A stretch of 46,723 bases of DNA. Origin: Firmicutes bacterium UBA3914. GTDB lineage: Bacteria; Bacillota; Limnochordia; Darwinibacteriales; Darwinibacteriaceae. Position numbers and translations under genes: made by a program. Shown here piece by piece: positions 25,253-46,723 of the stretch; position 1 is the first letter of the stretch; every line of letters begins with the position of its first letter. The stretch spans positions 5,531-52,253 of the forward strand of contig DGEY01000060.1 in assembly GCA_002391385.1 (NCBI GenBank), in the 5' to 3' direction. A model generated the notes under the pieces. It was given only the letters and a program-made list of their open reading frames with translations. It was not told the DNA's origin and searched no databases.

Positions 25253-25668
25253 CGGTGCTGTGGGAAGGATTTGTGCAGGGAGTCAGGGGAGTTATCACCA
25301 TCGGACTGATAGTTGTTCCTTTGATGATCGTTCTGGAGATCGCCCAGGGCAACGGCTGGCTGCAGAAGCTGAACCACTACGCGGCTAAGCCCTTTAGGCG
25401 CATTGGCGTTGGCGAGGAGGGCGTTTTTCCGCTGGTGGTGGCCATGCTCTTCGGCTTGACCTACGGCTCGGGCCTGATCATCAACCATGTGCGCACCGGG
25501 CAGGTGAGCGCCAGGGAGGCAAAGGTTATCGGCACCTTCATGGCCATAGCCCATGCCCTGGTGGAAGATACCATCATCTTCCTGGTCCTGGGGGCACCGC
25601 TTTTGCTGCTGTTGGTGCCTAGGTTAGTTTTGGCCTTTGCCATGTCGTACATCGTGTCCAAACGCTAA
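25249..25668 (+). CDS. nucleoside-recognition (Gate) domain membrane protein, second subunit
   Basis: 139 aa, hydrophobic, with the start overlapping the upstream stop codon. The paired arrangement resembles SpmA/SpmB-type pairs. Confidence 0.65.
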   Translation: MTVLWEGFVQGVRGVITIGLIVVPLMIVLEIAQGNGWLQKLNHYAAKPFRRIGVGEEGVFPLVVAMLFGLTYGSGLIINHVRTGQVSAREAKVIGTFMAIAHALVEDTIIFLVLGAPLLLLLVPRLVLAFAMSYIVSKR

Positions 25669-26909: not shown

Positions 26910-26983
26910 CCTGTACCCCCCTAGTGATTTCCCGCGGGGCGCTCCCCGTAGGGGCCCTCCTCTCCTAATGTTTAACTTTTTCA

Positions 26984-27012
26984 TTGAAATCCCTGCCTAG
27001 AGTTGGTATAAT
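26984..27012 (+). promoter_or_regulatory. near-consensus sigma-A promoter for the aminotransferase-reductase fusion gene
   Basis: TTGAAA (26984-89), a 17-nt spacer, then TGgTATAAT (extended -10, 27004-12). Confidence 0.55.
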
Positions 27013-27016
27013 TAGC

Positions 27017-27039
27017 ATTGTGCACAAAGTGTGCTCAAT
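27017..27039 (+). promoter_or_regulatory. 10-3-10 inverted repeat just downstream of the -10 box (operator or 5'-UTR hairpin)
   Basis: ATTGTGCACA (27017-26) aag TGTGCTCAAT (27030-39), with 9 of 10 positions complementary. Confidence 0.4.
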
Positions 27040-27058
27040 ACTCCGGGGAGGTACAAGG

Positions 27059-33547: not shown

Positions 33548-35145
33548 AGCGCAACTTTGCGGGCACCTTGACCTTAAGCAGGTTTTTCTGGCGCCAGGAG
33601 CGGCGTCAGGTGGTGCTGTGGGCGTTGGCCATCGTGCTCCTCAACTTCCTGGTTGTGGTCTCGTATGCCCAGATCTACAAAAGCCCGGCAGAGCGCGCCG
33701 CCATGGCCCAGACCATGCGCAACCCGGCCATGACCTTCATGCTGGGACCGGGCTGGGGCCTGGACAACTACACCATCGGCGCCATGGTGGGCCACGAGAT
33801 GCTGCTCTTTGCGGCCATGCTTGCGGCCATCATGAATATCCTGGTGGTACAGGCCCTCACCAGAAGCTCGGAAGAAGATGGCCGGCACGAGCTGCTGCTC
33901 TCCCTGCCCGTGGGCTCCTTGAGCAGTCTGGCCGCCCCGTTGGTTCTGGCACTGATGCAAAATGCAGGTCTGGCCCTGGCCACCGGGCTCGCCCTGTGGG
34001 TCCCGGGGGTGGAGTCAGTGGATCTCGCGGGCTCTCTGCTCTTCGGCACCGCGGTGGGCACCACCGGTTTCTTTTTTGCGGGTTTGACCGCTCTCTTTGC
34101 CCAGCTGGCAGAGACTTCCCGGGCCAACCTAATTCTTTCCCTATCAGTCCTGGGCCTGCTCTATGTACTGAGGGGCCTGGGTGATCTGGGCCGGGAATGG
34201 TTGTCTTTAGCCACTCCCTTGGGTTTGATCCTGCGCACCCAAGTGTATGTGGCCAATTACTGGTGGCCTGTGGGGATCATGCTGGCCGCCGCTGGGGTTC
34301 TGTGGACCGGTGCCTTCCGCTTGAACTGGGGACGGGACCTGGGCTCCGGTTATCTCCGGGCCCGGGCCGGCAGGCAGCGGGCTTCCAGGCTCTTGCGCAG
34401 CCCCTTCGGGTTGGCCCTCCGCCTGCAGCGCAGCGCCATCATCAGCTGGCTTTGTGCCCTGCTTCTCCTGGGCGCCTCCTACGGTTCGGTCTTCGCTGAT
34501 CTGGAAGAGTTTCTGGCGGGGAACGAATTCCTGCGGGAAATCCTCCCCTCGGTCCAGGGCTATTCCTTGACGGAGCAGTTTTTGAGTATGGTGATTGACG
34601 TCACGGCTATGCTGGCGGTAATTCCCGCCCTCCTCCCTGTGGTGCGGTTGGTCAAAGAAGAAAAAGCAGGCCGCCTGGAAAGCCTTCTGGCCCTGCCGGT
34701 CTCCCGCCTGAATCTGCTTTTGGGTTTTCTGCTCCTGGGCGTTTTGGTGAGCGCCCTGGCCATGCTGGCTTCGGGCCTGGGCTTGGGCTTAGCTGTCCAG
34801 GCGGTGCTGGGGGAGGGGCCGCCCTTAACCTCAGTCCTTGTGGCCAGCTTGGCACAGCTCCCCGGCATGCTGGTCATGCTGGGCGCGGCGGTGGTGATTG
34901 TGGGCTTCTGTCCGCGCTTCACCGTCCTGCTCTGGGCTTATGTGGCCTATTCCGTATTCGCCGTCTATTTCGGCGTCTTGATCAACCTGCCCCAGTGGGC
35001 GGTCAAGCTCTCGCCCTTTGGTTGGAATCCCCAGCTGCCCGTGGAGCCCTTTGAGGTTCAGACGGCCCTGCTTTTGCTGGGATTGGCGGTACTCCTCTGT
35101 GCCGCCGGCGCTTGGGGTTATGTCAGGCGGGATCTGGATCTTTGA
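33544..35145 (+). CDS. large ABC-2-type permease (about 533 aa, about 12 hydrophobic segments)
   Basis: ATG 33544 overlaps the ATPase stop codon (ATGA). Polytopic membrane protein. Confidence 0.8.
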   Translation: MKRNFAGTLTLSRFFWRQERRQVVLWALAIVLLNFLVVVSYAQIYKSPAERAAMAQTMRNPAMTFMLGPGWGLDNYTIGAMVGHEMLLFAAMLAAIMNILVVQALTRSSEEDGRHELLLSLPVGSLSSLAAPLVLALMQNAGLALATGLALWVPGVESVDLAGSLLFGTAVGTTGFFFAGLTALFAQLAETSRANLILSLSVLGLLYVLRGLGDLGREWLSLATPLGLILRTQVYVANYWWPVGIMLAAAGVLWTGAFRLNWGRDLGSGYLRARAGRQRASRLLRSPFGLALRLQRSAIISWLCALLLLGASYGSVFADLEEFLAGNEFLREILPSVQGYSLTEQFLSMVIDVTAMLAVIPALLPVVRLVKEEKAGRLESLLALPVSRLNLLLGFLLLGVLVSALAMLASGLGLGLAVQAVLGEGPPLTSVLVASLAQLPGMLVMLGAAVVIVGFCPRFTVLLWAYVAYSVFAVYFGVLINLPQWAVKLSPFGWNPQLPVEPFEVQTALLLLGLAVLLCAAGAWGYVRRDLDL

Positions 35146-35162
35146 TTTGAGGGATGGTGATC

Positions 35163-35198
35163 AAAAAAAGAGCTGCCTGCAGCAAGCAGCTCTTTTTT
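35163..35198. terminator. bidirectional intrinsic terminator
   Basis: AAAAAAGAGCTGC(35164-76)/GCAGCTCTTTTTT(35186-98). The A/T tracts on both sides can serve both convergent units. Confidence 0.8.
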
Positions 35199-35209
35199 GG
35201 TGCCCTGGA

Positions 35210-36211
35210 TTAGATCACGCCGTCCAGGTCTGCCCCGGCCAGGGCCACAACCAGATCTACACAGGCCTGGACATCTCCCAGATCCACCATTTCCGAAGGC
35301 GAGTGCACATAGCGGGTGGGGATGGAGATGGTTCCCGAAGGGACCCCTTCCTTGGTCAGGTGGATGGCCCCCGCGTCGGTGCCGCCCCGTTCCAGTACTT
35401 CCATCTGGTAGGGGATCCCTCCTGCTTCGCACAGGTCCACCAGGAGGTCTTTAACCCTGGGATGGGCAATGAGGGAGGAATCCTTGACCTTGATCGCGGC
35501 CCCCTTGCCCAAGCTGACGGCCATGTGCCTGGCCTCAGGGGTATCGCCGGTGAGGGTCACGTCCAGGGCGATGCCCAGGTCAGGGTCAAGGCCAAAGGCC
35601 GCGGTGCGGGCGCCCCTCAGGCCCACTTCTTCCTGGGTGGTGAACACGCAGTACAGGGTGTGTTTGGGTTTTTCGATCCTTCTCAGGGCTTCCACCAGTA
35701 CCGCGCAGCCAATGCGGTCATCCATGCTTTTGGCCACCAGGCGGTTCCCCAGGTCGGCGAACTCCCGGTGGAAGATGCCGAACTCCCCGATGCTCACCTT
35801 CTCCAGAGCTTCTTCTTTCGTTGCTGCGCCAATATCGATGTACAGTTTGTCCAGGGTCAGCTCTTTCCACTCGGTCTTGCCCTCTTGGTAGATGACGCCC
35901 ATGGTTCCGTTGGCAAAGCGGACCCGGTTGCCCACGAGGGTTGTGATGCCCACTCCGCCGATGGGGGAGAAGCGCAGGAATCCGTCCTCGTCGATGTAGG
36001 TGACCACAATCCCGATTTCATCGGTATGGGCCGCGAACATGATTTTCTTGCCGTCGGAGGAGCCGTGCTTGATGGCAATGAGGTTGCCTAAAACATCTGT
36101 GCGGAGTTCATCCACGTGGTCTTTGACCAGCTCTCGAATCAAGTCTGTAACTTCCCTCTCATACCCCGAAGGGCCGAAGGCCTGTGTTAGCTGCTCAATG
36201 ATGGCTTTCAA
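35210..36211 (-). CDS. M42 family metallopeptidase (TET/FrvX/YsdC-like), paralog 3 of 3
   Basis: SGYEREV, HTDEIG, DDRIG and QEEVGLRGA motifs. Confidence 0.9.
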   Translation of the reverse strand: MKAIIEQLTQAFGPSGYEREVTDLIRELVKDHVDELRTDVLGNLIAIKHGSSDGKKIMFAAHTDEIGIVVTYIDEDGFLRFSPIGGVGITTLVGNRVRFANGTMGVIYQEGKTEWKELTLDKLYIDIGAATKEEALEKVSIGEFGIFHREFADLGNRLVAKSMDDRIGCAVLVEALRRIEKPKHTLYCVFTTQEEVGLRGARTAAFGLDPDLGIALDVTLTGDTPEARHMAVSLGKGAAIKVKDSSLIAHPRVKDLLVDLCEAGGIPYQMEVLERGGTDAGAIHLTKEGVPSGTISIPTRYVHSPSEMVDLGDVQACVDLVVALAGADLDGVI

Positions 36212-37233
36212 CTCAATCCCGCCCTTTCTTCAAGCCGTGCTAGATAATGCTTAACCAGCTGGTATGCTCCTTCAAAATCGTCTTTGCACATCACTGCCGC
36301 CGGAGAGTGGATGTAGCGGCAGGGTACGGAGATCACCGCAACTTTTACCCCGGCCCGGGACAGCTGAATCTGGCCGGCATCTGTGCCCCCGGCGGTGCTG
36401 CGGCGGACCTGCACTTTGATTCCCTTTTCCGCGGCCAGGGCCAAGAGCTCCTGGACGAGTTCGGGGTTCGGGATCACCGAGCGGTCCATAACCGAGATGG
36501 CCGGTCCCTCCCCTAGGGCAGTGGCCTGTTTATGGTCGTCCGTCCCCGGCACATCGGAGGCTGTGGTCCCCTCCAGAACCAGGGCCAGATCAGGTTCCAC
36601 TTGGTAGGCGGCCACGCCGGCACCCCGCAGGCCCACTTCTTCTTGAACGGTAAAGGCGGCAATCAAGGGGAAGGAGACCTCTTCCTGCAGCAGGCGGATG
36701 AGCAGGGCGCAGCCCACCCGGTCGTCCAGGGCTTTGGCCTTCACCCTGTTTTCGCCCAGCTCTTCGTATTCGGTGGTGAAATAGGCGATTTCCCCAAGCT
36801 GCACCAGTTTCTCCGCCTCTTCTCTGTTCTTGGCGCCAATATCAATGACCATTTCCCTGATGGTAAAGGCCTTTTCCCTTTCTTCGGGCCTCTGCAGGTG
36901 GATGGGCTTGCTGCCGATCACGCCCGGCACTTTTTTCCTGCCCACCACTACCGTTTTGGCCACTAGAACCCTGGGATCAACTCCGCCGATGGGGCGGAAC
37001 TTCAGATAGCCGTCCCCGTCAATCCCCACAACCATCAAGGCCACTTCGTCCATGTGCGCGGCCAGCATCACCTTGGGTCCGGGAGCATCGGGGTTTTTAA
37101 TGGCCAAGAGGTTGCCCAGGGCATCTGTTTTCACGATCTGGACATGGGGTTCGATTGCGGCACGGATCAGGTCCCGTACCTCGTCTTCCTGCCCAGGCGC
37201 GCCGTTGGCTTGGGTTAGGCGGGCTAAAAGCAT
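36208..37233 (-). CDS. M42 family metallopeptidase, paralog 2 of 3
   Basis: PGQEDEV, HMDEVA, DDRVG and QEEVGLRGA motifs. 4-nt overlap with the downstream paralog. Confidence 0.9.
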   Translation of the reverse strand: MLLARLTQANGAPGQEDEVRDLIRAAIEPHVQIVKTDALGNLLAIKNPDAPGPKVMLAAHMDEVALMVVGIDGDGYLKFRPIGGVDPRVLVAKTVVVGRKKVPGVIGSKPIHLQRPEEREKAFTIREMVIDIGAKNREEAEKLVQLGEIAYFTTEYEELGENRVKAKALDDRVGCALLIRLLQEEVSFPLIAAFTVQEEVGLRGAGVAAYQVEPDLALVLEGTTASDVPGTDDHKQATALGEGPAISVMDRSVIPNPELVQELLALAAEKGIKVQVRRSTAGGTDAGQIQLSRAGVKVAVISVPCRYIHSPAAVMCKDDFEGAYQLVKHYLARLEERAGLS

Positions 37234-38285
37234 GTCAATCCCTCCACAAATTCATGATCGAGGCCGGCAATGAACATGGCCATTAAGCGCCCTGTAGCCT
37301 GGATGTCCCGGTAATCCAGGGTTTCCACGGGGGTGTGCATATAACGCAGGGGAATAGACAGTAAAATAGTGGCTACTCCGCTGCGAGCCACCTGCATGGC
37401 GTAGGCATCGGTTCCTCCTGGATAGGGCGAGGGGTCCAGGGAATAGCTGATGTTCCATTCCTTGGCCGTTTCCACCATGCGGGCATGCAGCTTGGGATGA
37501 ACATGGGGTCCGATGGCAATGCCCGGTCCTTTGGACAGCTTGATGGTTTCCTCTTCGCTCAGCCCCGGGGAATCACCGAAGCCCACATCTATGGCAATCC
37601 CGATATCGGGGACAATACCGTAGGTGCTGGTCACTGCCCCCCGCAGGCCAACCTCTTCCTGCACGGTGGCCACACCGTACACATCCGCCTGGTGCGTGAC
37701 GGTGGACAGGACCTGGAAGCATTCTAAAATGGCGGCTACTCCCGCCCGATCGTCAAAAGCTTTGCCGGAGAGGAAGGAGCCCGCAAGCTGGGAAACCCGG
37801 CGCTTCAGGGTGACCAGATCGCCCACCCGCACCTGGCGCTTAGCCTCTTCTGCGCTGGCAAAACCGGCGTCGATGAACAGATCTTCCATCTTCACCGCCT
37901 TGCCCTGTTCCCCCGGCGCCTGGATATGGGGCGGCTTTGCGCCGATGATACCCGTGAGTGTTCCTTTCCTGCCGTGGATTACAACTTCCTGGGCCAGCAG
38001 CACCCGCTGGTCAAAACCGCCAACAGTACTGAAGCGCAGGAAGCCTTCCTTCTCAATTTTGGTGATGATTAACCCAATTTCGTCCATGTGGGCGGCTAGC
38101 ATCACTTTGGGCCTGGGTTCTGGTCCCTGGCCCCTTTTGAGCAAGATCAGATTGCCTAGTTTATCGGTGCGAGCCTCGTCCGCCCAGGGACAGCCCTGCT
38201 TGATCAGTTCCAACAGCCCGAACTCGTAGCCTGATACACCTGGTGCTTCGCTCAAGCTGCGAAAAACGTCTTTTACATCCACCAA
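37224..38285 (-). CDS. M42 family metallopeptidase, paralog 1 of 3
   Basis: SGYEFG, HMDEIG, DDRAG and QEEVGLRGA motifs. GTG start follows GGAGGGA. Confidence 0.9.
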   Translation of the reverse strand: MVDVKDVFRSLSEAPGVSGYEFGLLELIKQGCPWADEARTDKLGNLILLKRGQGPEPRPKVMLAAHMDEIGLIITKIEKEGFLRFSTVGGFDQRVLLAQEVVIHGRKGTLTGIIGAKPPHIQAPGEQGKAVKMEDLFIDAGFASAEEAKRQVRVGDLVTLKRRVSQLAGSFLSGKAFDDRAGVAAILECFQVLSTVTHQADVYGVATVQEEVGLRGAVTSTYGIVPDIGIAIDVGFGDSPGLSEEETIKLSKGPGIAIGPHVHPKLHARMVETAKEWNISYSLDPSPYPGGTDAYAMQVARSGVATILLSIPLRYMHTPVETLDYRDIQATGRLMAMFIAGLDHEFVEGLTCF

Positions 38286-38388
38286 TTTCCCTCCTATCCT
38301 CCAGGTTTAACTGTATTATTTCTGGTTGCTAAAGGAAAAACCTGCATCAGCGAGAATTAAACTAGAGCAGGTGGAAAGGGGCTGCAGC

Positions 38389-38844
38389 ATGGTGAACAGC
38401 GGTGTCTATGTGCTCTGGCTGTATCTGCCGCGCCGGGTTTCCCTCACGGTTGGCAAACTGGGGACCTTTTCCTTTCCCCCAGGTGTCTATGCCTACAGCG
38501 GGAGCGCCCAGCGCCACCTCCAGCAGCGCATCGCCAGGCACCGCCGGGCAGCTAAGAAGCTGCACTGGCACATCGACTATTTTCGCGCCGCTGCGGAGCT
38601 GCTGGGTTTTGTCGTGTTTCCCGGGGCCCCGAAAGAAGGGGAATGCCGCTGCGCGGAGCAGCTACTGCGTTTGCCCGGAGCGGCTCTACCTGCACCAGGC
38701 CTCGGTTCCTCGGACTGCTCCTGCGGCAGTCACCTGGTCTACCTGCCCAGTCTGCAGCCTGGGCTAGTAGCGCTTGGCCACGCGGTTGAGAATATTGAGC
38801 TGGGTGCGGCAAAGCCGCTCGCATTCTTCGATGCTGGAGATTAG
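38389..38844 (+). CDS. DUF123 / GIY-YIG (Uri-superfamily) endonuclease-like protein
   Basis: GVYVLWLYL...GKLG.F.FP.GVYAYSGSA...L..RI.RH....KKLHWHIDY matches the DUF123 pattern. A C-terminal Cys cluster is present (CRCAE, SSDCSCGSH). Confidence 0.65.
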   Translation: MVNSGVYVLWLYLPRRVSLTVGKLGTFSFPPGVYAYSGSAQRHLQQRIARHRRAAKKLHWHIDYFRAAAELLGFVVFPGAPKEGECRCAEQLLRLPGAALPAPGLGSSDCSCGSHLVYLPSLQPGLVALGHAVENIELGAAKPLAFFDAGD

Positions 38845-38958
38845 ATCCAGGTTCTTCTTGGGATGCAGCTGCCCGATGCTTTCTTCGCACAGGGCCTGAA
38901 GTTCAGTCAGGCGTTCCGCTAATCTCCAGATGATGTCACTTGGCGACATGAACGACAT
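38764..38958 (-). CDS. small helical hypothetical protein (64 aa)
   Basis: Intact ORF with amphipathic helical sequence. It overlaps the 3' end of the DUF123 ORF by 81 nt. No family recognised. Confidence 0.35.
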   Translation of the reverse strand: MSFMSPSDIIWRLAERLTELQALCEESIGQLHPKKNLDLISSIEECERLCRTQLNILNRVAKRY

Positions 38959-39013
38959 CCTCTCTCAAGTAATCTAGCGTCACAATTATATCACAGAACT
39001 GGGAGGGTTTTGC

Positions 39014-40405
39014 TTGCTTTCGGAAAGCGTAATCACGGACGTGCTGTTGGCCGCCCTATCCACCGGCGGTGATTTTGCCGAGATTTTCATGGAAGACACT
39101 TTCAACACCCAGATCCGCATGCTGGACGGTGCGGTGGAAGAGGCAGTGAGCGGAAGGGACCACGGGGTAGGGATTCGCATTTTCCAAGGTCTGCGCTCGG
39201 TCTATGCCTACACCAATGACCTGAGGCGGGAGAGCTTGATGAAAACGGCCAGGGAGGCCGCGGCGGCGCTGCCTGGGGTTCCCCAGGGCAAGACGGTGGT
39301 CCTGGCCCGGATGGCCGTGGATAGGTTCAACCCGGTGCGCCTGGAGCCCAGGCAGGTTCCCCACCGTGACAAGGTTGAGGTGATGAAGAAGGCCCACCTG
39401 GCCGCGGCGGGCTTCCATGAGCAGATCACGCAGGTTGTGGTGCACTACCTGGATGTGGATCAGAATGTGCTCATTGCCAATTCCGAGGGCCTACTCGCGG
39501 AGGACCGCAGGGTGCGGACCCGGCTGTCCATCAACGCGGTGGCCACCCGGGGCGAGGAAAAACAGTCGGCTTTCCGCGGCCCCGGCCGGCACATGGGCTT
39601 TGAACTATTTGAACGCATCGATGTGGAGGAAATCGCCCGGGATGCTGCCCACAGCGCGGTGACCATGGTCAATGCCGATTACGCGCCGGGTGGGAAGTAT
39701 CCGGTGATCATCGACAACGAGTTTGGCGGGGTCATTTTCCACGAGGCCTGCGGCCACAGCCTGGAAGCCACCAGCGTGGCCAAGGGGGTTTCCGAGTTCA
39801 GCGGCAAGCTCGGGGAAAAGATCGCCAGCGAGCTGGTGACCGCGGTGGATGACGGCACCATCCCCAACGCCTGGGGGTCCCAGAACATCGACGATGAGGG
39901 TACCAAAACCAGAAGAAATGTGCTCATCGAGAAGGGCATACTCAAAGGGTATATGATCGATCGCCTCAACGCCCGCCGCATGGGTATGGAACCCACCGGC
40001 AATGCCCGGAGGCAGTCGTATAAATTCGCCCCCACCTCCCGCATGACCAATACCTTTATCTGTGCCGGTGAATCCACCCGCGAGGAGATCATCGCCAACA
40101 CCGAATACGGCTTGTACGCTAAGCGCATGGGCGGCGGTTCAGTGAACCCAGCCACCGGTGAGTTCAACTTCGCGGTGGCGGAGGGCTACATGGTGCGGGG
40201 CGGCAAGATCGCCGAACCTGTGCGGGGAGCCACCCTCATCGGCAGGGGTTCGGAGATCCTGCAGAAGATCGACATGGTGGCCTCCAACTTGGCCACGGGC
40301 CAGGGTATGTGCGGTTCGGTGAGCGGCTCCATCCCCGCAGATGTGGGTCAGCCCACCATCAGGGTAACAGAGATGACTGTAGGCGGACGGAAGGAGGCCA
40401 ACTGA
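39014..40405 (+). CDS. tldD: TldD-family metalloprotease
   Basis: HEACGHSLE zinc motif in full-length TldD-like sequence. TTG start follows GGGAGGG. Confidence 0.92.
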   Translation: MLSESVITDVLLAALSTGGDFAEIFMEDTFNTQIRMLDGAVEEAVSGRDHGVGIRIFQGLRSVYAYTNDLRRESLMKTAREAAAALPGVPQGKTVVLARMAVDRFNPVRLEPRQVPHRDKVEVMKKAHLAAAGFHEQITQVVVHYLDVDQNVLIANSEGLLAEDRRVRTRLSINAVATRGEEKQSAFRGPGRHMGFELFERIDVEEIARDAAHSAVTMVNADYAPGGKYPVIIDNEFGGVIFHEACGHSLEATSVAKGVSEFSGKLGEKIASELVTAVDDGTIPNAWGSQNIDDEGTKTRRNVLIEKGILKGYMIDRLNARRMGMEPTGNARRQSYKFAPTSRMTNTFICAGESTREEIIANTEYGLYAKRMGGGSVNPATGEFNFAVAEGYMVRGGKIAEPVRGATLIGRGSEILQKIDMVASNLATGQGMCGSVSGSIPADVGQPTIRVTEMTVGGRKEAN

Positions 40406-41760
40406 TGGATTTTCGGGAGTTTAAGGAACGTGTCTTCGCGGCTGGGAAGGCCAACGGCCTGGAGGAACTGGAAGTCTACGCCACCCGTTCCCGCAGTGTG
40501 AACGTGCGGGTGTTTGATGGTCAGGTGGATGATTACCGGGTCAGCGTAGAGCAGGGTGTGGGCCTGCGGGCCCGCTTCGGGGGCAAAGTGGGCTATGCCT
40601 ATGTGGAAAAACTGGATGAGGATTCCGTGGACTTCCTAGTCCAGGGGGTCAAGGCCAATGCCCAGATCATCGAATCCGCCGACGAAGTGGTTTTCCACGA
40701 GGGTTCAGCGAGTTATCCCCAGGTTGTGTGTTACAATGAAGATCTGGACCGCCTCTCTCCAGAGGAGATGATGGCCTTCTGCCTGGAGCTGGAAAAAACC
40801 GCTTTGGCCGCGGACGAACGGGTGTTCAAAGTGTCCAACGCCGTGACAGGCTGCGGGCAGACCGAGGTCTATATCGCCAACACCAGGGGCCTGGAACAGG
40901 GGTACAGAAGCAATGGGGTATTCAGCTACCTCAGTGCTGTGGTGCGCCAAAACGGCCAGGTCAAAACGGGGTATAAAGTCCTGTTTGACCGGGATTGGTC
41001 CACGTTCCAGGCTGATAAGATGGCCAGGGAAGCGGTGGAGGAAGCGGTATCCCTCTTGGGGGCTTCCAGCGTGTCCTCGGGCAGCTATCGGGTCTTGCTG
41101 CGGCGGGATGTGGCCCGGGAGCTTCTGGCCACTTTCGTCCCTGTTTTCTCCGCCGAATCGGTGCAAAAGGGGCTTTCGCTTCTCAAGGGCAAGTTGGGCC
41201 AGACCATCGCCAGTCCCCTGATCACCTTAGTTGATGACCCTCTGCTGGAAAACGGTGCCGGATCTGCTCCCTTTGACGGCGAAGGGGTGGCAGCCCGCAC
41301 CAAACGGGTGATTGAAGCTGGCCGCTTAACCACTTTCCTGCACAACCTGAAAACGGCCCGCAAAGATGGGGTGGACTCTACCGGCAACGCCTCCCGGCCC
41401 TCCTTTAAATCGCCCGTGGGTATTGCTCCCACCAACTTCTTCATTGAACCGGGGGAATATGCTTATCCTGAGCTAGTGGAGAGCCTGGATGATGGCCTAA
41501 TCATCATTGATGTGCAGGGAACCCACTCCGGTGCCAATCCCGTTTCCGGCGACTTTTCCCTGGGCGCCTTCGGCTACCTGGTGGAGGGCGGGAGAATCGT
41601 CCGGCCCGTGGATCAGATTACCATCGCCGGCAACTTCTTTAAGCTGCTGGAATCCGTAGAGGCTATCGGGTCTGACCTGGAGTTTGAAGTACCCAGTGTG
41701 AGGGGCAATGTGGGTTCACCTTCCCTGATCATCAGCGGGCTGGCCGTGGCCGGCAACTAG
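40405..41760 (+). CDS. pmbA: PmbA/TldE-family protease partner
   Basis: ATG 40405 overlaps the tldD stop codon (TGATG). PmbA-like sequence (GDFSLGAFGYLVEGG). Confidence 0.9.
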   Translation: MDFREFKERVFAAGKANGLEELEVYATRSRSVNVRVFDGQVDDYRVSVEQGVGLRARFGGKVGYAYVEKLDEDSVDFLVQGVKANAQIIESADEVVFHEGSASYPQVVCYNEDLDRLSPEEMMAFCLELEKTALAADERVFKVSNAVTGCGQTEVYIANTRGLEQGYRSNGVFSYLSAVVRQNGQVKTGYKVLFDRDWSTFQADKMAREAVEEAVSLLGASSVSSGSYRVLLRRDVARELLATFVPVFSAESVQKGLSLLKGKLGQTIASPLITLVDDPLLENGAGSAPFDGEGVAARTKRVIEAGRLTTFLHNLKTARKDGVDSTGNASRPSFKSPVGIAPTNFFIEPGEYAYPELVESLDDGLIIIDVQGTHSGANPVSGDFSLGAFGYLVEGGRIVRPVDQITIAGNFFKLLESVEAIGSDLEFEVPSVRGNVGSPSLIISGLAVAGN

Positions 41761-41772
41761 GAGGCGGCAGCA

Positions 41773-42303
41773 ATGAAGCTGGACGCGAAGTTAGCGGCAA
41801 ATGTGGGCGTGCTCACGGCGGTGTCCATTGTGCTCACCCGCTTTTTTGGGGTGATTGTTCCCATTGCCGGCGCCAATGCCCTGCGCCTGAGCTTTGGGGA
41901 GGCGCCCATCATGCTGGCAGGTGTCCTCTTCGGACCGGCGGGGGGAGCTTTGGCCGGCGTGGCCGCGGATTTGGTGGGCTTTTTGATCAATTCTTTTGGG
42001 GGGCCCTACCATCCTGGGTTGACCTTAAGCATGGGCCTCACCGGGCTGATTCCCGGGCTGCTGCTGCACAGCAAGCGCAATGAGCTCACGGTCCTGCAGG
42101 TGGGCCTGATCGTACTGCTCACAGATCTCATCACGGGTGTGCTCCTCAACACGCTGTGGCTGTCCCAGATGTTTGGTGGGGGGTTCTTTGAACTTCTGGG
42201 CATGCGGCTTGTGGCCAGGCTGCTCACCGTGCCCTTGTACACAGTCACGGTGTACTGGGCCAGCAGAGCCTATCGCTTCTACCTGGCCGGCGGCAGCCGC
42301 TGA
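41773..42303 (+). CDS. folT: folate-family ECF transporter S component
   Basis: 176 aa with about six TM segments. RLSFGEAPIMLAGVLFGPAGGALAGVAADLVGFLIN is FolT-like. RBS GGAGG at 41759-63. Confidence 0.78.
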   Translation: MKLDAKLAANVGVLTAVSIVLTRFFGVIVPIAGANALRLSFGEAPIMLAGVLFGPAGGALAGVAADLVGFLINSFGGPYHPGLTLSMGLTGLIPGLLLHSKRNELTVLQVGLIVLLTDLITGVLLNTLWLSQMFGGGFFELLGMRLVARLLTVPLYTVTVYWASRAYRFYLAGGSR

Positions 42304-42341
42304 GCTCTGCCCTCTTGCGAATTTCGCACCGAGGGGCCCCG

Positions 42342-42370
42342 TTGAAGGTGCGGCGGTTTTGTGCTATTAT
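42342..42370 (+). promoter_or_regulatory. candidate sigma-A promoter for the small ORF
   Basis: TTGAAG (42342-47), a 17-nt spacer, then TGcTATTAT (42362-70). Confidence 0.4.
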
Positions 42371-42408
42371 ATGTTTAAAAATTGTCTCAATGGAGTGTGA
42401 AGTTCCGC

Positions 42409-42636
42409 ATGGAAATTGACCCGCCGAAACGGTGGAAGCTTTGGAAGGCAGAGATTTTATACAGACTGCCTCAAGAATCGCGCAAGAAGATCAAGAACCT
42501 GCTGAAGTTGGGCGATGAATATAAAAGCAGTGGGGAGGAAGAGCTGGCGGAGCACTGCTACCACCTCTCCAGGAAACTGGCTGAGCAGGCCCGCGCGGTG
42601 CACCTGCTGAAGAAAATAGAACAACGGGTGAGATAA
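42409..42636 (+). CDS. small helical hypothetical protein (75 aa)
   Basis: ORF with a Lys/Glu-rich helical sequence, preceded by GGAG at 42392. No family recognised. Confidence 0.42.
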   Translation: MEIDPPKRWKLWKAEILYRLPQESRKKIKNLLKLGDEYKSSGEEELAEHCYHLSRKLAEQARAVHLLKKIEQRVR

Positions 42637-42663
42637 ATACTTACCCGGCCCCCTGGGGCCTGC

Positions 42664-42692
42664 TTGATCTGCAGCCCCAAGTGAGATAGAAT
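42664..42692 (+). promoter_or_regulatory. candidate sigma-A promoter for arsR-family gene, with TGAAA-tc-TTTCA palindrome (42700-42711) downstream
   Basis: TTGATC (42664-69), a 17-nt spacer, then TAGAAT (42687-92). A 5-2-5 inverted repeat lies between the -10 box and the start codon. Confidence 0.42.
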
Positions 42693-42723
42693 GATATTAT
42701 GAAATCTTTCACAAGGGGGTCGG

Positions 42724-43002
42724 GTGATGGAGCGGATCAAAACATGCGCGCAGCGCTTTCATGTGCTCGCGGACCCGATTCGACTGCAGATACTCCTCTT
42801 GCTTCAGGGGCAGGAAATGTGTGTCGGGCAGTTGGCTGAAGTGCTCGGCGTTAACCAACCTACGGTTTCCTATCATCTCAAGCGGCTGCACAGGGCTGGG
42901 TTGGTGGAGAGGCGCGCGGAAAACACCTGGAACTATTATTCCGTCTGTACAGACCTGCGCAGCTGGGTGAACCATGAGATCGATCATCTGCTCCAAGCGT
43001 AA
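42724..43002 (+). CDS. ArsR/SmtB-family transcriptional repressor
   Basis: FHVLADPIRLQILLLL...CVGQLAEVLGVNQPTVSYHLKRLHRAGLV is a winged HTH. Confidence 0.88.
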   Translation: MMERIKTCAQRFHVLADPIRLQILLLLQGQEMCVGQLAEVLGVNQPTVSYHLKRLHRAGLVERRAENTWNYYSVCTDLRSWVNHEIDHLLQA

Positions 43003-43029
43003 CCCACTGCCCAAGCAAGGGGGCTATCG

Positions 43030-43350
43030 GTGAGAGATTTGAAGAGAATAACCAAGGCACCGTCGCTTTGGCGAGCGGTGCTCATGATCTGGCGGGCAGG
43101 CTTAGAATCCTTCAAGCGGGGCGACCAGCCCACGGCGCTGCAGGAGAAGCTGGCTCGGCTGGAGCGGGAGCACCTGGAGCTATCCCGGCTGGTGCATGAC
43201 TACGAAACGAAGCTGCACAGTATCGCCAGGAACAACCAGGAGCTGGTCCAGGCCAAAAAGGAGCTGGAGTGGGGCTACCACGCCTTGCTCTTGGAAAACA
43301 ACATGCTCAAGGAAGAGATTTTCAGGCTCAAGGGCAAACCGCTCAACTGA
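43030..43350 (+). CDS. coiled-coil hypothetical protein (106 aa)
   Basis: GTG start 27 nt after the arsR stop codon. Heptad-like LARLEREHLELSRLVHDYETKLHS...ELEWGYHALLLENNMLKEEIFRLKG. Confidence 0.48.
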   Translation: MRDLKRITKAPSLWRAVLMIWRAGLESFKRGDQPTALQEKLARLEREHLELSRLVHDYETKLHSIARNNQELVQAKKELEWGYHALLLENNMLKEEIFRLKGKPLN

Positions 43351-43359
43351 GAATGCGGA

Positions 43360-43392
43360 GGAGTCGAGGCGCTTTGACTCCTTCTTCTTTTT
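43360..43392 (+). terminator. weak intrinsic terminator
   Basis: GGAGTC(43360-65)/GACTCC(43376-81) followed by TTCTTCTTTTT. Confidence 0.4.
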
Positions 43393-43425
43393 GAGGGGAA
43401 GCCAAGGAGAAAGGAAGTTTGCTGC

Positions 43426-43899
43426 ATGCAGGCGAGAAAGATGGTTCTAACTGCCCTTTTAGTGGGGGTAGTGGCTGTGGTGACTATGGTAGTGAACATT
43501 CCCCTGCCGGGGGTGAAGGGCTATGTCAACATCGGCGACACCGTGGTGCTGCTCTCCGGTGTGCTCTTCGGTCCGCTCACAGGGCTGGCAGCCGGCGGCC
43601 TTGGTTCAGCCCTCGCGGATCTTCTGCTGGGCTACGGGTTTTGGGCCCCCTGGACACTGCTGATCAAAGGCCTGGAGGGGCTGGCCGCGGGCTGGCTCAT
43701 TGGGCGCTGGGAGAAGGCCGCCTGGGCAGTGGGCCCCGCCGCGGCCCTGATGGTTTTGGGCTATTTCCTCGCGGGCAGCATCATCTACGGCTGGGGACCG
43801 GCCCTGGCCTCACTGCCCGGCGATCTGCTCCAGGGGGCAGTCAGTGCCGCCCTCTGCCTGCTTCTCCACGGACCTTTGAAGAAATACCTGGCGTCCTAA
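43426..43899 (+). CDS. ECF transporter S component (PF07155/RibU-like family; substrate unknown)
   Basis: 157 aa with about five TM segments. YVNIGDTVVLLSGVLFGPLTGLAAGGLGSALADLLLGY matches the pattern. Confidence 0.72.
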   Translation: MQARKMVLTALLVGVVAVVTMVVNIPLPGVKGYVNIGDTVVLLSGVLFGPLTGLAAGGLGSALADLLLGYGFWAPWTLLIKGLEGLAAGWLIGRWEKAAWAVGPAAALMVLGYFLAGSIIYGWGPALASLPGDLLQGAVSAALCLLLHGPLKKYLAS

Positions 43900-43913
43900 G
43901 TGGCGGAACAGGC

Positions 43914-43941
43914 ACACTTCTCCCGGGGTGCTCATAGAATA
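43914..43941 (+). promoter_or_regulatory. candidate mother-cell (sigma-K/sigma-E type) promoter upstream of sigK
   Basis: AC (43914-15), a 17-nt spacer, then CATAGAATA (43933-41). This matches my recollection of the sigma-K consensus, AC-(16-17)-CATAnnnTA. Confidence 0.35.
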
Positions 43942-43977
43942 TAAGGCTTGAGTGCAGGGAGAAGGGGGGCACCAGCT

Positions 43978-44325
43978 TTGTTTTCCTCACTGATCAGCGC
44001 CTTTGGCTCGCTGCTCGTGGAAGGAATTGGTTTCTTAACGGGATTCATTACCAGCGGGAGCGCCTTTCCCAAGCCCCTCCGGCCGGAAGAGGAACGGGAA
44101 CTGCTCCTGAAAAAAGAAGCAGGAGACGAAGGTGCCCGCAACATTCTCATCGAGCGGAACCTTCGTCTCGTGGCGCATGTGGTAAAGAAGTTCGACAACA
44201 CCGGTGAAGACACGGAAGATCTAATCTCCATTGGTGTGATCGGCCTCATCAAGGCCATCAACACTTTTGATCCCGGCAAAAACACCCGCCTAGCTACCTA
44301 TGCGGCCAGGTGCATTGAAAATGAG
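43978..44325 (+). pseudogene. sigK: 5' segment of the sigma-K gene (spoIVCB-like): pro-sequence through region 2.4, interrupted
   Basis: TTG 43978 follows [19 protein letters not shown]...[40 protein letters not shown]...[13 protein letters not shown] is colinear with my recollection of B. subtilis SigK. Homology stops after codon GAG 44323-25. The remaining ORF (to 44514) is antisense to the GH65 gene. Confidence 0.85.
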
Positions 44326-44340
44326 AATTCACTGTCAATG
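44313..44340. repeat. 28-bp imperfect palindrome centred on the sigK break
   Basis: CATTGAaaatgaga/attcactgTCAATG. The outer 6 bp are perfect and 10 of 14 arm positions are complementary. The axis lies at 44326/44327. Confidence 0.6.
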
Positions 44341-46656
44341 GGGAATGCTGATCTGCCCATCCGCCTCCACCCCGTAGGGCTGGCCGTGGACCACCAGGTC
44401 GCAGCGGGCGCCGCCCTCCTGGCTGATCACCACCTCGGAGGGGGTGACCTGTACCTTCAGGCGGTGGCCCCGGAAGAGCAGGCCGAAGGAATAGCTCTTC
44501 CAGCGACCGGGTAGGAACGGCCGCAGCGTGAGGCGGTCGTTTTCTATGCGCAGGCCGGCGAATCCGTACACAATGGCCATCCAGGTGCCAGCCATGCTGG
44601 TGATATGCAGACCGTCATCGGTGTCCTTGTTGTAGTTGTCCAAATCTAGGCGCGCGGTGCGCAGGTAAAGCTCGTAGGCCTTGTCGTGGTAGCCAATCTC
44701 CGCGGCGATGATAGCATGGACGCAGGGCGACAGCGACGATTCGTGAACCGTCATGGGTTCATAGAAATCGAAGTTGCGCTTTTTTGTCTCCAGATCATAC
44801 AGATGCCCCAGGAAGAACAGGCCCTGCAGCACATCGGCCTGCTTGATGAAGCAGGAGCGTAGGATGCGGTCCCAGGACCAGTTCTGGTTCAGGGGCAGAT
44901 CCTCCGGGGAAAGATCCGCCACGGTGAGAAGCTCCTTATCCATGAATCCATCCTGCTGCTCAAACACCCCCAGCTCTTCCACGTAGGGATAGTACATGCG
45001 GGCGGCAATATCGCTCCAGTGTTCCAGCTCAGACTGCTGGAGTTGCAGTTTGTCCACCAGCTTGCGGTAGCTGTCGGGTTTGGCCCGGCGCAGCTCCGCC
45101 AGGACTTCCATGGTGTATTCCAGGCACCAGACCGCGATGCGGTTGGTGTACCAGTTGTTGTTCACGTTGTTTTCGTATTCGTTGGGGCCGGTGACACCCA
45201 AAATCATGTACACGCCTTTTCTGGGCTGGAAAGTCACCCGGCTGGCCCAGAAGCGGCAGATCTCCACCAGAACCTCCAGGCCATAGTCCTCCAGATACTG
45301 CCCGTCGCCTGTGTAGCGCACGTAGTTGAAGATGGCGTAGGCGATGGCGCCGTTGCGGTGGATTTCCTCAAAGGTGATCTCCCACTCGTTGTGGCACTCT
45401 TCGCCGTTCATGGTGACCATGGGGTAGAGGGCGCCCTTGAGCCCCAGCTTGCGGGCGTTTTCTTTGGCCTTTTCCAGGTGGTTGTAGCGGTAGAGCAGCA
45501 GATTCCGGGCGATCTCCGGCTCCCTGGTGCCCAAATAGAAGGGCAGGCAGTAGGCCTCCGTATCCCAGTAGGTGCCCCCTCCGTACTTTTCCCCCGTGAA
45601 TCCCTTGGGACCGATGTTCAGGCGGGGGTCTTCCCCTGTGTAGGTCTGATGCAGGTGGAAGATGTTGAAGCGGATGCCCTGTTGGGCAGCGGGATCCCCC
45701 TCAATGACAATATCGCTTTCCCCCCAGGTTTTGGCCCAAGCCTGGGCATGGCGGGCAAAGAGCTCCCGGTAGTTGTGGGAACAGTAGCGGCGCACCAGCT
45801 CCAGGGCCCGCTGGGAGACCAGCTCCCGGGGATGGTCGCGGCTGGTGGTAACCGCCACAAGCTTTTCTAGAGAAACCGTCTCGCCAGAGTGCACCGTAAG
45901 CTCAGCCTCTGCCCCGGCATAGCGCGGGCGCGCCGTGGGGCGGACCTCCACAGCCGCTTCCTCCTGGCCCCGGTAGAGGCGGAAGGTGCTGGCTGCCGCC
46001 ACCACAAAGCCAGATTTTTTCACTTCCATGGTGACCAGCTGATAGTCTTCCCCGCTGAACTCCTCCACCCGCTGCCAGAAATCCTCGCCGTAATTGGCGT
46101 CTTCGTTGACCACATTGCCCTCGAGGTAGGGGGTGAATTTGACCTGTGCTCCCCGGCCCGGGGGATCAACCAGCAGTGTTAGGCTGTAGCGGATGCAGGC
46201 CAGCTCCCGCCGGTCTTTACTGACAAAACGCCGGGCCTCAACGGAATAGACCCGCCCTTCCCCATCTTCCACCTGGAAGGAACGGACCAGCTCGCCCCGG
46301 TACATGTCCAAAGTGCGCCGGAACTTGCTGGGCCGCCAGGTATGTAGATCCAGCACCCTGCCGTCCAGCTGCACATCGATGCCGATGAAATTGACCGCAT
46401 TCAACACCTTGGCGAAGTACTCCGGGTAGCCCACCTTCCACCAGCCCACCACCGTGCGGTCGGGGTAGTAAACGCCGGCGATGTAGGTTCCCTGGAGGTG
46501 ATCCCCTGAATAGCTTTCCTCGAAGTTTCCGCGCAGGCCCATGTATCCGTTGCCTAAGCTCATGATGCTCTCCATGAACCTGTTGGACTCTGGATGGAAT
46601 CCCTCTTCGCTTACACTCCATTCGTCGATTCCCAGAAGTGGTCTCAGAACTATCAC
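44335..46656 (-). CDS. glycoside hydrolase family 65 disaccharide phosphorylase (maltose/kojibiose/trehalose phosphorylase-like)
   Basis: 773 aa. N-terminal [15 protein letters not shown], then a central catalytic (alpha/alpha)6-like region ([19 protein letters not shown]). The GTG start at 46656 has a poorly spaced RBS, so the exact start is uncertain. Confidence 0.9.
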
Positions 46657-46701
46657 TCTCCCGCGCTGGCTTTAACTTATTCTACCCCACTTTCCGCATC
46701 C

Positions 46702-46716
46702 TGGCAATCGTTTGCA
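46702..46716. promoter_or_regulatory. LacI/CcpA-type operator-like palindrome upstream of the GH65 gene
   Basis: TGGCAATCGTTTGCA contains GCAA-t-CG-t-TTGC, about 50 nt upstream of the GH65 start codon. Confidence 0.3.
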
Positions 46717-46723
46717 CAACAGC

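Follow-up and report, generated by a model that had tools for sequence, protein, structure and literature searches.

In Bacillus subtilis, sigK is split into spoIVCB and spoIIIC by the 48-kb skin element and the recombinase SpoIVCA is ~500 aa long, while Skr, its directionality factor (RDF), is a 64-aa ORF that overlaps the 5′ end of spoIVCA (PMC6957869). In C. difficile, the sigK-intervening element skinCd (14.6 kb) is excised in the mother cell by CD1231, a 505-aa serine recombinase that depends on the RDF CD1234, and the cell-type specificity comes from a component controlled by sigma-E and SpoIIID (PMC5025042). The survey of Galperin et al. covers elements of 2.6-48 kb with 2-67 proteins in Bacilli, Clostridia, Negativicutes and Tissierellia; prophage-like content is not universal among them, and spoIVCA, usually immediately upstream of spoIIIC, is the sole gene shared by an otherwise non-uniform cargo (bioRxiv 10.1101/2022.02.25.481979). 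The gin element of B. cereus gerE is another non-prophage element that interrupts a sporulation gene and has its own developmentally regulated recombination system, with the recombinases GirC and GirX and a 9-bp core (PMC5595907). In large serine recombinases, directionality is ascribed to the coiled coil of the zinc ribbon and to directionality factors acting on it. The block on attL x attR recombination is mediated by the coiled coil (PMC3783163). Loss of the coiled coil in LI Int deltaCC (PMC5499577) or change in phiC31 E449K (PMC7337939) lifts this block without a directionality factor. Both are laboratory constructs that keep the zinc ribbon, and LI integrase stripped of its coiled coil yields some L x R deletion product even when no RDF is present but is a poor enzyme (PMC5499577).

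We describe here a split sigK in a window of 46,723 nucleotides (the whole stretch of DNA analysed) from Firmicutes bacterium UBA3914, and in contigs that continue it. Relative to the survey of Galperin et al., in which none is reported for Limnochordia, it is a new occurrence in this class. As in the loci of the B. subtilis group, the gene is split after residue 116, SigK has a pro-sequence and the upstream motifs resemble those of mother-cell promoters; SigK of C. difficile, in contrast, has no pro-sequence (PMC5025042). Unlike the B. subtilis skin, the element is only 4.0 kb long and carries no phage-like genes, its cargo being a GH65 enzyme and a beta-phosphoglucomutase. Its 280-aa recombinase is devoid of both zinc ribbon and coiled coil, and there is no skr ORF. 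The element also lies in the opposite orientation, so that the recombinase gene and the 3′ half of sigK are immediate neighbours on the same strand. It resembles the small elements of Galperin et al. in this position and in its cargo, but its recombinase gene measures 0.84 kb against the ~1.5 kb implied there for spoIVCA, and the elements of its relatives go down to 1.62 kb, below the surveyed range (bioRxiv 10.1101/2022.02.25.481979). It shares with skinCd the interruption of sigK and, in our proposal, mother-cell excision that relies on a serine recombinase and is under cell-type-specific control. It differs from gin in its target gene, recombinases and core. Our proposal resembles what was engineered in the integrases, except that the loss occurred naturally, goes further and has been conserved, with intermediates in sister lineages. 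Split sigK elements are known; the stripped-down recombinase is new relative to the skin and integrase literature cited here.

The two halves of sigK

The ORF that starts at TTG 43978 encodes residues 1-116 of pro-sigma-K up to position 44325 (Table 1). It covers positions 5-117 of the 227 positions of the SigK model TIGR02846 with 161 bits, short of the 298.65 that the model demands of a full-length protein, and Pfam Sigma70_r2 is covered only at 1-60 of 71. The last SigK-like codon is 44323-25, the HMM match stopping at ORF residue 117-121, and the antisense-GH65 tail that follows is a by-product of the insertion. Public gene callers start the 5′ half at the same TTG and give a product of 178 aa. 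A tblastn search for the C-terminal half gave no match within the window. Sequence beyond the window end was taken from three contigs of the same strain (L001, L003 and L004) that are 99.99% identical to positions 34335-46723. There the C-terminal half (117 aa beginning with ILMHLR; a 115-aa ORF for the gene callers) was found on the same strand, 3,991 bp further on. When the halves were joined in silico at their common GA, an uninterrupted full-length SigK was obtained that scored 332.5 bits against TIGR02846, above the cut-off, over positions 5-225 of 227, whereas SigE models gave 249 bits, under their own cut-off. The same junction was present on all 5 of the independently assembled contigs compared, out of 24 (NCBI and Logan assemblies). 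In public records the two halves are annotated as unrelated small sigma-70 fragments. On the same contigs, spoIIIA genes lie close by.

Upstream of the 5′ half, the blocks AACAGGCACA and CATAGAATA are both kept in more than 20 related genomes, including the element-free L080 and L083. We take these blocks to be the mother-cell sigma (sigma-K/sigma-E) pattern AC-N16/17-CATAnnnTA of the B. subtilis consensus, and by this resemblance the region is probably a promoter read by such a factor. A promoter-like motif, CCATTATAnCATG-N17-CATAG, precedes the recombinase gene and is conserved in 25 species. A preliminary description of the window had recognized the N-terminal half of pro-sigma-K, the antisense origin of its tail, the absence of the C-terminal half from the window and a sigma-K/sigma-E-type -10 box. 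It had also predicted a matching 3′ fragment and read the split as the mark of a skin-type element. Each of these points agrees with our results, the two halves lying on the same strand and encoding, once joined, a full-length SigK.

Table 1. Features at the interrupted sigK (window coordinates) and predicted excision products
Feature	Position	Strand	Basis
Promoter-like region of sigK: AACAGGCACA (43907-16), 16-bp spacer, CATAGAATA (-10 box, 43933-41)	43907-43941	+	Conservation
Ribosome-binding site GGGAGAAGGGGGG before the TTG start at 43978	43957-43969	+	Sequence; G-rich block conserved there
5′ half of sigK (spoIVCB equivalent): pro-sequence and regions 1.2 to 2.4	43978-44325	+	TIGR02846, Sigma70_r2, dN/dS
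attL: B arm GTGCATTGAAAAT (44310-22), central GA, the putative crossover dinucleotide (44323-24), P′ arm GAATTCACTGTCAA (44325-38)	44310-44338		Conservation, shared core
Read-through tail of the truncated sigK ORF	44326-44514	+	Antisense to GH65 3′ end; not sigK sequence
Part of the sigK-intervening element within the window (2,398 bp)	44326-46723		Contigs L001, L003, L004
GH65 glycoside phosphorylase or hydrolase, 773 aa, element cargo	44335-46656	-	NF010380, 1136 bits (cut-off 838)
Predicted attB after excision: GTGCATTGAAAAT-GA-GATCTTAATGCAC; junction k-mer GGTGCATTGAAAATGAGATCTTAATGCACCTGCG			In silico
Predicted attP; junction k-mer GTTTGTCAGTGAACTCGAGAATTCACTGTCAATGG			In silico

Element, att sites and recombinase

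The element is 3,991 bp long and holds three genes: two for enzymes of sugar metabolism, namely a GH65 phosphorylase and a beta-phosphoglucomutase, and one for a serine recombinase of the SpoIVCA family. Its last ~1,593 bp lie beyond the window end and comprise the beta-phosphoglucomutase gene (minus strand), the putative recombinase promoter, the recombinase gene (plus strand) and attR, after which the 3′ half of sigK begins. GH65, which had previously been taken for a mere neighbour of sigK, is cargo of the element. It is found within the element in ~19 species, at 64-81% identity, and its stop codon, which occupies 44335-37 and appears as TCA in the plus strand, sits in the P′ arm of attL. 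The beta-phosphoglucomutase scored 243 bits against TIGR01990 (cut-off 189.4), giving a GH65 and beta-phosphoglucomutase gene pair, called at family level. No phage genes were found in the element, which lacks the prophage-like gene content of classical skin elements. The rest of the window consists of housekeeping genes, with neither phage genes nor a second recombinase, and an Rfam scan of the window gave no matches.

The only sequence common to attL and attR at the junction is GAGA (44323-26), and the GA at the centre of the sites is invariant in both in 22 of 22 species. Once reconstructed, attB and attP each form a dyad around GA 44323-24, and in attL the half-site cores CATTGAA (44313-19) and TTCACTG (44328-34) lie at equal distance from it. 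All four half-sites read CA(T/G)TGAA...TTCA(C/A)TG, or nTnAAGTkACnGT from the centre outward, and conservation of the P and P′ arms ends at position 13. The preliminary description had proposed as recombinase site a palindrome at the break, with its axis at 44326.5. Its arms are real (44313-24 and 44329-40, 10 of 12 positions complementary) and the break does carry a shared core with inverted half-sites, but the conserved and presumably functional dyad lies 3 bp further left, on GA. The outer ATG of the right arm of the palindrome is not kept in other species, and the palindrome is a feature of the hybrid attL in this species. Its 6-bp arms alone are weak evidence because perfect 6-bp inverted repeats with a 10-20 bp spacer start about once per 210 bp in the window. 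Around the element, no extra half-site cores of the kind seen in resolvase res sites were found beyond the att sites.

The recombinase gene is situated at the element edge and its ORF runs across attR, which supplies the last codons; its stop overlaps the Met codon of ILMHLR as TAATG. The protein is made of a Resolvase domain (PF00239, positions 2-144 of 145) and a Recombinase domain (PF07508, 3-100 of 102), with no other domains, and the serine motif YARVSTEEQ as well as DPDRLSR are invariant. A spoIVCA-like large serine recombinase had been expected between the sigK halves: a SpoIVCA homologue is indeed there, but with 280 aa it is not large. No PF13408 (zinc ribbon) match was found in this protein, which ends 5 residues past the Recombinase-domain match. 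In the alignment its ORF stops where relatives begin SRRR...CxxCG, and the zinc ribbon with its coiled coil is absent. It is 47% identical to SpoIVCA of the B. subtilis group and 52-58% identical to enzymes from Anoxybacillus and Thermoactinomycetaceae encoded beside a split sigK, and it aligns to residues 63-296 of SPbeta SprA. An AF2 model, made from a protein (P0001) 99% identical to the recombinase derived from L003, best matched the NTD+RD structures of SprA and phiC31. In this model, residues 112-145 form a helix (alpha-E) and the chain ends after helix 264-278. No serine recombinase of the SpoIVCA/integrase family is known to us to work without its zinc-ribbon domain.

A Skr-type ORF lies upstream of the full-length relatives and is removed here by a deletion of ~85 nt; an HMM of the Skr N-terminus gave no match in the window or in L001-L003. 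Within one clade, the recombinase is found in successively reduced forms: 466 aa with a Skr ORF (L023), 381-383 aa with a zinc ribbon and a Skr ORF but no coiled coil (L020, L024), 381 aa with the Skr ORF gone (L019), and 280-287 aa with neither zinc ribbon nor Skr ORF. Two further short proteins were rejected as members of the series or as traces of excision. P0020 (304 aa), considered as a product of the circle junction, results from a frameshift that carries the reading frame on into the 3′ half of sigK and does not represent attP. P0083 (282 aa), considered as an independent short form, corresponds to the N-terminal half of a full-length SpoIVCA broken by a frameshift, with its zinc ribbon in a separate ORF. 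Completion of the recombinase ORF across attP in the circle was likewise discarded, as it would add only ~16 antisense-GH65 residues before a stop.

Relatives and the search for excision products

The same layout was found in ~25 species-level MAGs (Limnochordia/Bacillota), with elements of 1.6-4.4 kb. Over 15 of these species, dN/dS was 0.054 for the 5′ half of sigK, 0.032 for the 3′ half, 0.084 for the recombinase, 0.092 for GH65 and 0.099 for beta-phosphoglucomutase, with dS of ~1 or more. By these sequence comparisons, purifying selection has preserved the two parts of sigK, the recombinase and the att half-sites in ~25 species. An empty site was identified in a relative with 79% SigK identity, which has an intact sigK in identical synteny; in the search of genome contigs for relatives, the best match was 84%. 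The rejoined SigK of this species was absent from a set of 5.8 billion protein clusters, in which the best full-length match was 82% identical; the top full-length matches were rejected as rejoined products, since they come from element-free relatives. The exact attP junction had no match in metagenome contigs, and a degenerate attB pattern had 8, all in distant sigma genes (47-55% identity). The missing attB and attP are weak evidence because assemblies favour the majority, integrated form.

Excision and its alternatives

On the reading that we consider probable, at roughly 75%, the 5′ half of sigK is followed in the window by the opening 2.4 kb of a skin-type element fixed in a Limnochordia-like lineage, and the recombinase of this element excises it in sporulation, as we propose without a directionality factor. 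During sporulation, a mother-cell sigma factor would transcribe the recombinase from its upstream motif. Dimers of the recombinase would recognize attL and attR through their 13-bp half-sites and cleave the DNA at the central GA, and subunit rotation would delete the element as a 4-kb circle, leaving attB in the restored sigK, while the forespore chromosome would retain the element. The zinc-ribbon/coiled-coil module, which blocks attL x attR recombination in canonical enzymes, and the Skr-type ORF would both have been lost; because of this double loss, we propose that no directionality factor is needed and that timing is set by transcription of the recombinase alone. That a 280-aa enzyme with only catalytic and recombinase domains suffices for precise, developmentally timed excision at 28-bp sites, without zinc ribbon, coiled coil or RDF, is a proposal to which we give even odds. 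Such an enzyme would have arisen from SpoIVCA/Skr by stepwise loss, in which the coiled coil went first, Skr second and the zinc ribbon last, every stage being extant in sister lineages.

Excision in the mother cell could instead depend on a helper encoded elsewhere, which would be either another large serine recombinase of full length, a directionality factor from an unlinked locus or a host protein that bends DNA and provides site selection. The zinc-ribbon domain normally gives much of the att-site binding (PMC3783163), LI integrase is inefficient without its coiled coil (PMC5499577), many COG1961 recombinases often occur in Firmicute genomes (bioRxiv 10.1101/2022.02.25.481979), and the genome was inspected over 46.7 kb plus ~10 kb. 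We nevertheless find a helper rather improbable: the four half-sites are alike, the end of attP conservation at 13 bp per half-site fits a protein without an outer-site reader, no Skr-like ORF was found in the window or in the 22-kb loci, and strong purifying selection acts on the truncated recombinase gene in all of the species. That the element is frozen, with an inactive recombinase, a permanently split sigK and sporulation no longer completed, is very unlikely. Although two of the four modules typical of the family are missing from the recombinase and searches of public assemblies gave no rejoined sigK, a dead gene would have decayed, whereas the sigK halves, recombinase and att half-sites are intact in 15-25 species, at dN/dS of 0.03-0.08 with synonymous sites saturated. 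The nearby spoIIIA genes also speak against a frozen element.

The TAATG overlap and the C-terminal ORF predicted by gene callers could also suggest a split sigma factor, whose halves would be made as separate polypeptides, the second translationally coupled to the recombinase, and would assemble without DNA rearrangement. We regard this as scarcely credible, as the break falls within region 2.4, the N-terminal half would bear a 62-residue antisense-derived tail, and the conserved catalytic recombinase and dyad att sites would be left unexplained; the ATG and the stop, moreover, follow from the conserved ILM codons. Practically no weight is left for a decayed sigK duplicate or an assembly artefact at 44325, which the preliminary description had named as what would overturn it, and to which a window showing only half a gene might point. 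The precisely matching 3′ half 4 kb away and the layout shared by ~25 species speak against decay, and the recurrence of the junction on independent contigs and in those species speaks against misassembly.

The clade forms a natural deletion series at the same sigK site, from full-length enzymes with Skr, through enzymes without coiled coil, with and then without Skr, to enzymes without zinc ribbon, all under purifying selection. This series makes it possible to test which minimal module can find and recombine two sites, and whether the RDF becomes dispensable once the coiled coil is gone. If our proposal is true, these proteins are a branch of the large serine recombinases that performs excision alone, and a compact enzyme encoded by 0.84 kb that makes deletions at 28-bp sites without an RDF would be a useful tool. 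These results also indicate that a skin element can be reduced to ordinary metabolic genes beside its recombinase (1.6-4 kb) and be vertically inherited over a long time.

A sigK gene split by a 3,991-bp element

An open reading frame begins at TTG 43978. It aligns to positions 5-117 of 227 of the SigK equivalog model TIGR02846 (161 bits, for a full-length cut-off of 298.65 bits) and only to 1-60 of 71 of Pfam Sigma70_r2; from 44326 its frame runs on for 62 codons, which lie antisense to a GH65 gene at its 3' end. A tblastn search with the SigK C-terminal half gave no match within the window. The preliminary description, which held that sigK is split at this point and that the rest of the gene is missing from the window, was thus correct.

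The GH65 protein is found with an identical sequence in 275 blocks of a public collection (24 contigs read, 5 shown). Contigs L001, L003 and L004 share 99.99% identity with window 34335-46723 (1 mismatch in 12,389 bp) and therefore continue the window. The matching sigK 3' half was found on them, 3,991 bp separating codon 116 from ILMHLR; it had been invisible at first because the window stops 67 bp upstream of the GH65 start. About 96% of the intervening element is coding (see table). The 233-aa protein joined in silico reached 332.5 bits with TIGR02846 (positions 5-225 of 227), exceeding the equivalog cut-off and far above any SigE model. Just downstream of the sigK 3' half (region L001 3306-7555, L002 6792-7808), a UPF0236 transposase-like gene is found in L001 and L002, L001 carrying in addition a cluster of rve / Mu-transposase C, AAA_22 and DUF6431; L003 has an assembly gap there (run of N, 7790-7878). 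This region is an insertion hot spot adjoining the element, at which strains differ.

Features of the element and of its surroundings (numbers in brackets: gene order in the sigK direction)
Feature	Location	Strand or orientation	Size	Match
sigK 5' half (1)	window, from 43978
GH65 (2)	window 44335-46656	minus; antisense to sigK		NF010380, 1136 bits
HAD protein, beta-phosphoglucomutase (3)		antisense to sigK	222 aa	TIGR01990, 243 bits (cut-off 189)
Recombinase (4)	L003 8334-9176	sense	280 aa	Resolvase, Recombinase
sigK 3' half, from ILMHLRSTRR... (5)		sense	117 residues	Sigma70_r4
Skr-like ORF, Limnochordia clade	L020 5137-; L023 1092-; L024 9898-; L048 9748-
Small conserved ORF	window 42382-42636		84 aa (75-79 aa as called on public contigs)	no Pfam match
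ArsR-family regulator	window 42724-43002
Small conserved ORF	window 43030-43350		106 aa	no Pfam match
439-aa ORF	window 25665-26984	minus, opposite to 896-aa ORF	439 aa	no Pfam match
896-aa ORF	window 26984-29674		896 aa	class-III aminotransferase, residues 51-442 only

Window 1-43900 carries the usual housekeeping genes of a chromosome (MnmA, PEP carboxykinase, CCA-adding enzyme, Glu/Gln-tRNA synthetase, PGI, ZnuABC, RluD-like, DapF, three M42 peptidases, TldD/PmbA); it lacks phage genes, a further recombinase and any match to Rfam. The two small conserved ORFs flank the ArsR-family gene between two ECF-transporter S-component genes, and both are retained in an element-free relative (L080). 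The second half of the 896-aa ORF is either unexplained or an over-extension of the ORF in GC-rich DNA.

Attachment sites and distribution of the element

The 5' junction (attL, window) reads GCCAGGTGCATTGAAAAT-GA-GAATTCACTGTCAATGG and the 3' junction (attR, L003) reads CGTTTGTCAGTGAACTC-GA-GATCTTAATGCACCTGCG. GAGA (window 44323-26) is the sole sequence common to both at the break, so the crossover must lie within it. Arm exchange gives attB as GTGCATTGAAAAT GA GATCTTAATGCAC, whose outer 7-bp inverted repeats are perfect, and attP as TTGTCAGTGAACTC GA GAATTCACTGTCAA, complementary at 12/14 positions. Each forms a dyad around the first GA (window 44323-24), which is invariant in attL and in attR among 22 species; in the same species the conservation of the element-side arms reaches position 13 and not beyond. 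On the top strand, the single pattern CA(T/G)TGAA...TTCA(C/A)TG fits all four half-sites. The palindrome noted in the preliminary description does exist (arms 44313-24 and 44329-40, 10/12 complementary), but it shares only its left arm with this dyad: its right arm lies 3 bp further out and its outer ATG is found only in this species. This comparison makes it a property of the hybrid attL and not the conserved dyad. The GH65 stop codon sits in the P' arm, and the recombinase ORF crosses attR to end in ...LSVNSRS, its stop overlapping the sigK ILM codons (TAATG).

A scan with the recombinase alignment, one genome per species, returned 74 loci. We examined 27 loci with this layout (25 from the scan, the window strain L003, and L048), and all 27 have the order sigK-5', cargo, recombinase, sigK-3'. 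The 26 relatives are MAGs of uncultured Bacillota or Limnochordia, many from anaerobic digesters, L048 being 'Ca. Darwinibacter acetoxidans'. Elements of 3.96-4.41 kb carry GH65, bPGM and recombinase; those of 1.62-1.93 kb (L019, L025-27, L068) carry bPGM and recombinase only. From species to species the identities of GH65, bPGM, recombinase and SigK drop in step, a pattern that fits vertical inheritance of the element. A relative whose SigK is 79% identical carries sigK uninterrupted (L080 4574-5275, L081 1323-2024) in the gene neighbourhood of the window (TldD/PmbA, ECF-S, ArsR, ..., sigK, HAD phosphatase, YqeH-like GTPase, ..., EF-P, spoIIIA), which makes an empty-site comparison; its attB reads TGTATCGAAAATGAAATTTTAATGCAT.

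The same scan recovered classical SpoIVCA genes of the B. subtilis group (47% identity), Anoxybacillus, Paenibacillus and Thermoactinomycetaceae. In these loci also the sigK 5' half ends at residue 116, so that insertion site and recombinase are homologous to those of the B. subtilis skin element. In another lineage (L092 5852-7870, 47% identity) a frameshift splits SpoIVCA into ORFs of 282 aa and 233 aa (zinc ribbon), with a 58-aa upstream ORF and a convergent sigK 5' fragment; either an error in sequencing or the decay of a skin element may account for this.

A recombinase without zinc ribbon, coiled coil or Skr

In the recombinase, Pfam recognises two domains only, Resolvase (2-144 of 145) and Recombinase (3-100 of 102), and the protein aligns to residues 63-296 of SPbeta SprA. 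Its AlphaFold model (pLDDT 79) comprises a catalytic domain, a long alpha-E helix (112-145) and a recombinase domain, and stops after helix 264-278; the closest structures are SprA-DNA complexes and the phiC31 'N-terminal and recombinase domains' construct. Among curated NCBIfam models it also matches XisF (78 bits), the developmentally regulated excision recombinase of the heterocyst fdxN element, from the same superfamily. Within the clade the protein occurs as 466 aa with zinc ribbon and coiled coil (L023; cf. the homologue P0042, 456 aa), as 381-383 aa with the zinc ribbon kept and the coiled-coil segment deleted (L019, L020, L024; cf. P0021, P0023, P0027) and as 280-287 aa with neither. 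In the alignment, forms of 280-283 aa end where longer relatives go on with the zinc ribbon (SRRR...LLSGLxRCxxCG). That the short gene is a pseudogene is contradicted by its dN/dS of 0.084 at dS of about 1 or more (15 species), a value similar to that of GH65 (0.092) and bPGM (0.099), the sigK halves having 0.054 and 0.032, and by the invariance of the serine motif and of DPDRLSR. Where the short recombinases start differs between species; in L013 a stop codon directly before LIAIYARVST (~9985-10010) implies a non-ATG start.

In B. subtilis the directionality factor (RDF) of the skin element is Skr; its 64-aa ORF begins ahead of spoIVCA and extends over the 5' end of that gene in a different frame (PMC6957869). 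At nearly all full-length SpoIVCA loci that we fetched (L028-L072), a frame +2 ORF begins 82-97 nt upstream of the SpoIVCA start, with a conserved N-terminus of the type MKVKIIxGxxxDKxIxDCYxYLxxxYRKE, indicating that this arrangement is widely conserved. Such loci come from the Bacillus subtilis group, Anoxybacillus, Paenibacillus, Thermoactinomycetaceae, Desulfitobacteriaceae and others. The ~85 nt for this N-terminus are absent in every 280-287 aa form and in L019. An HMM of it matched just upstream of the recombinase only in the four Limnochordia-clade loci of the table, which were in its training set, and in a B. spizizenii control, so that only the control and the negatives are informative; neither the window nor the 22-kb loci of this species gave a match. 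The interpretation given in the preliminary description is supported, with three corrections: the centre of the dyad, GH65 as cargo, and a recombinase that is not large.

Proposed excision and relation to known skin elements

Upstream of the recombinase, 25/25 species have CCATTATAnCATG, a spacer of ~17 bp, aCATAG(a/t)nT, then GGGAGGTG and the start codon. Upstream of sigK, AACAGGCACA-N16-CATAGAATA (window 43907-41) is kept in all, and the -10 box reported earlier is indeed CATAGAATA at 43933-41. In B. subtilis, -10 boxes of the CATA type are the hallmark of sigma E and sigma K, the mother-cell factors, either of which may act here. Processing of a pro-protein is also probable, since SigK retains its pro-sequence at the N-terminus.

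The data establish the anatomy of the element, selection on its genes and sites, the symmetry of these sites and homology to SpoIVCA and skin; the mechanism of excision is a proposal. The recombinase would be transcribed in the mother cell, its dimers would bind the four similar 13-bp half-sites and cleave at GA, and subunit rotation would release a 4-kb circle and restore sigK. The zinc ribbon of canonical enzymes recognises the outer portion of 20-25-bp half-sites and also sets the position of the coiled coil, by which attL x attR synapsis is blocked until the RDF acts (PMC3783163, PMC5025042). When LI integrase is deprived of its coiled coil, it relaxes DNA and, with no RDF present, yields some product of L x R deletion (PMC5499577). 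Coiled coil, Skr and zinc ribbon would have been lost in that order, a plausible path since one-way excision in a terminal cell needs neither integration nor a block, and one that the short conserved stretch in attP fits. Excision may rely on a helper encoded elsewhere. Neither rejoined sigK nor a circle junction of this species was found in assembled data, which is weak evidence because assemblies show the majority form.

Published skin elements span 2.6-48 kb and 2-67 genes in Bacilli, Clostridia, Negativicutes and Tissierellia; spoIVCA usually adjoins spoIIIC, and no other gene is common (bioRxiv 10.1101/2022.02.25.481979). Non-phage intervening elements are also known, such as gin in gerE (PMC5595907), so that split sigK, small size and non-phage cargo are ordinary extensions of known biology. 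An incomplete literature search retrieved no description of a skin element in Limnochordia, of skin elements as small as 1.6 kb or, above all, of a conserved SpoIVCA without zinc ribbon, coiled coil or Skr, for which an earlier description is possible. That sigK is split conforms to expectation; what comes as a surprise for the serine-recombinase field is a naturally minimised recombinase with graded relatives, which is directly testable.
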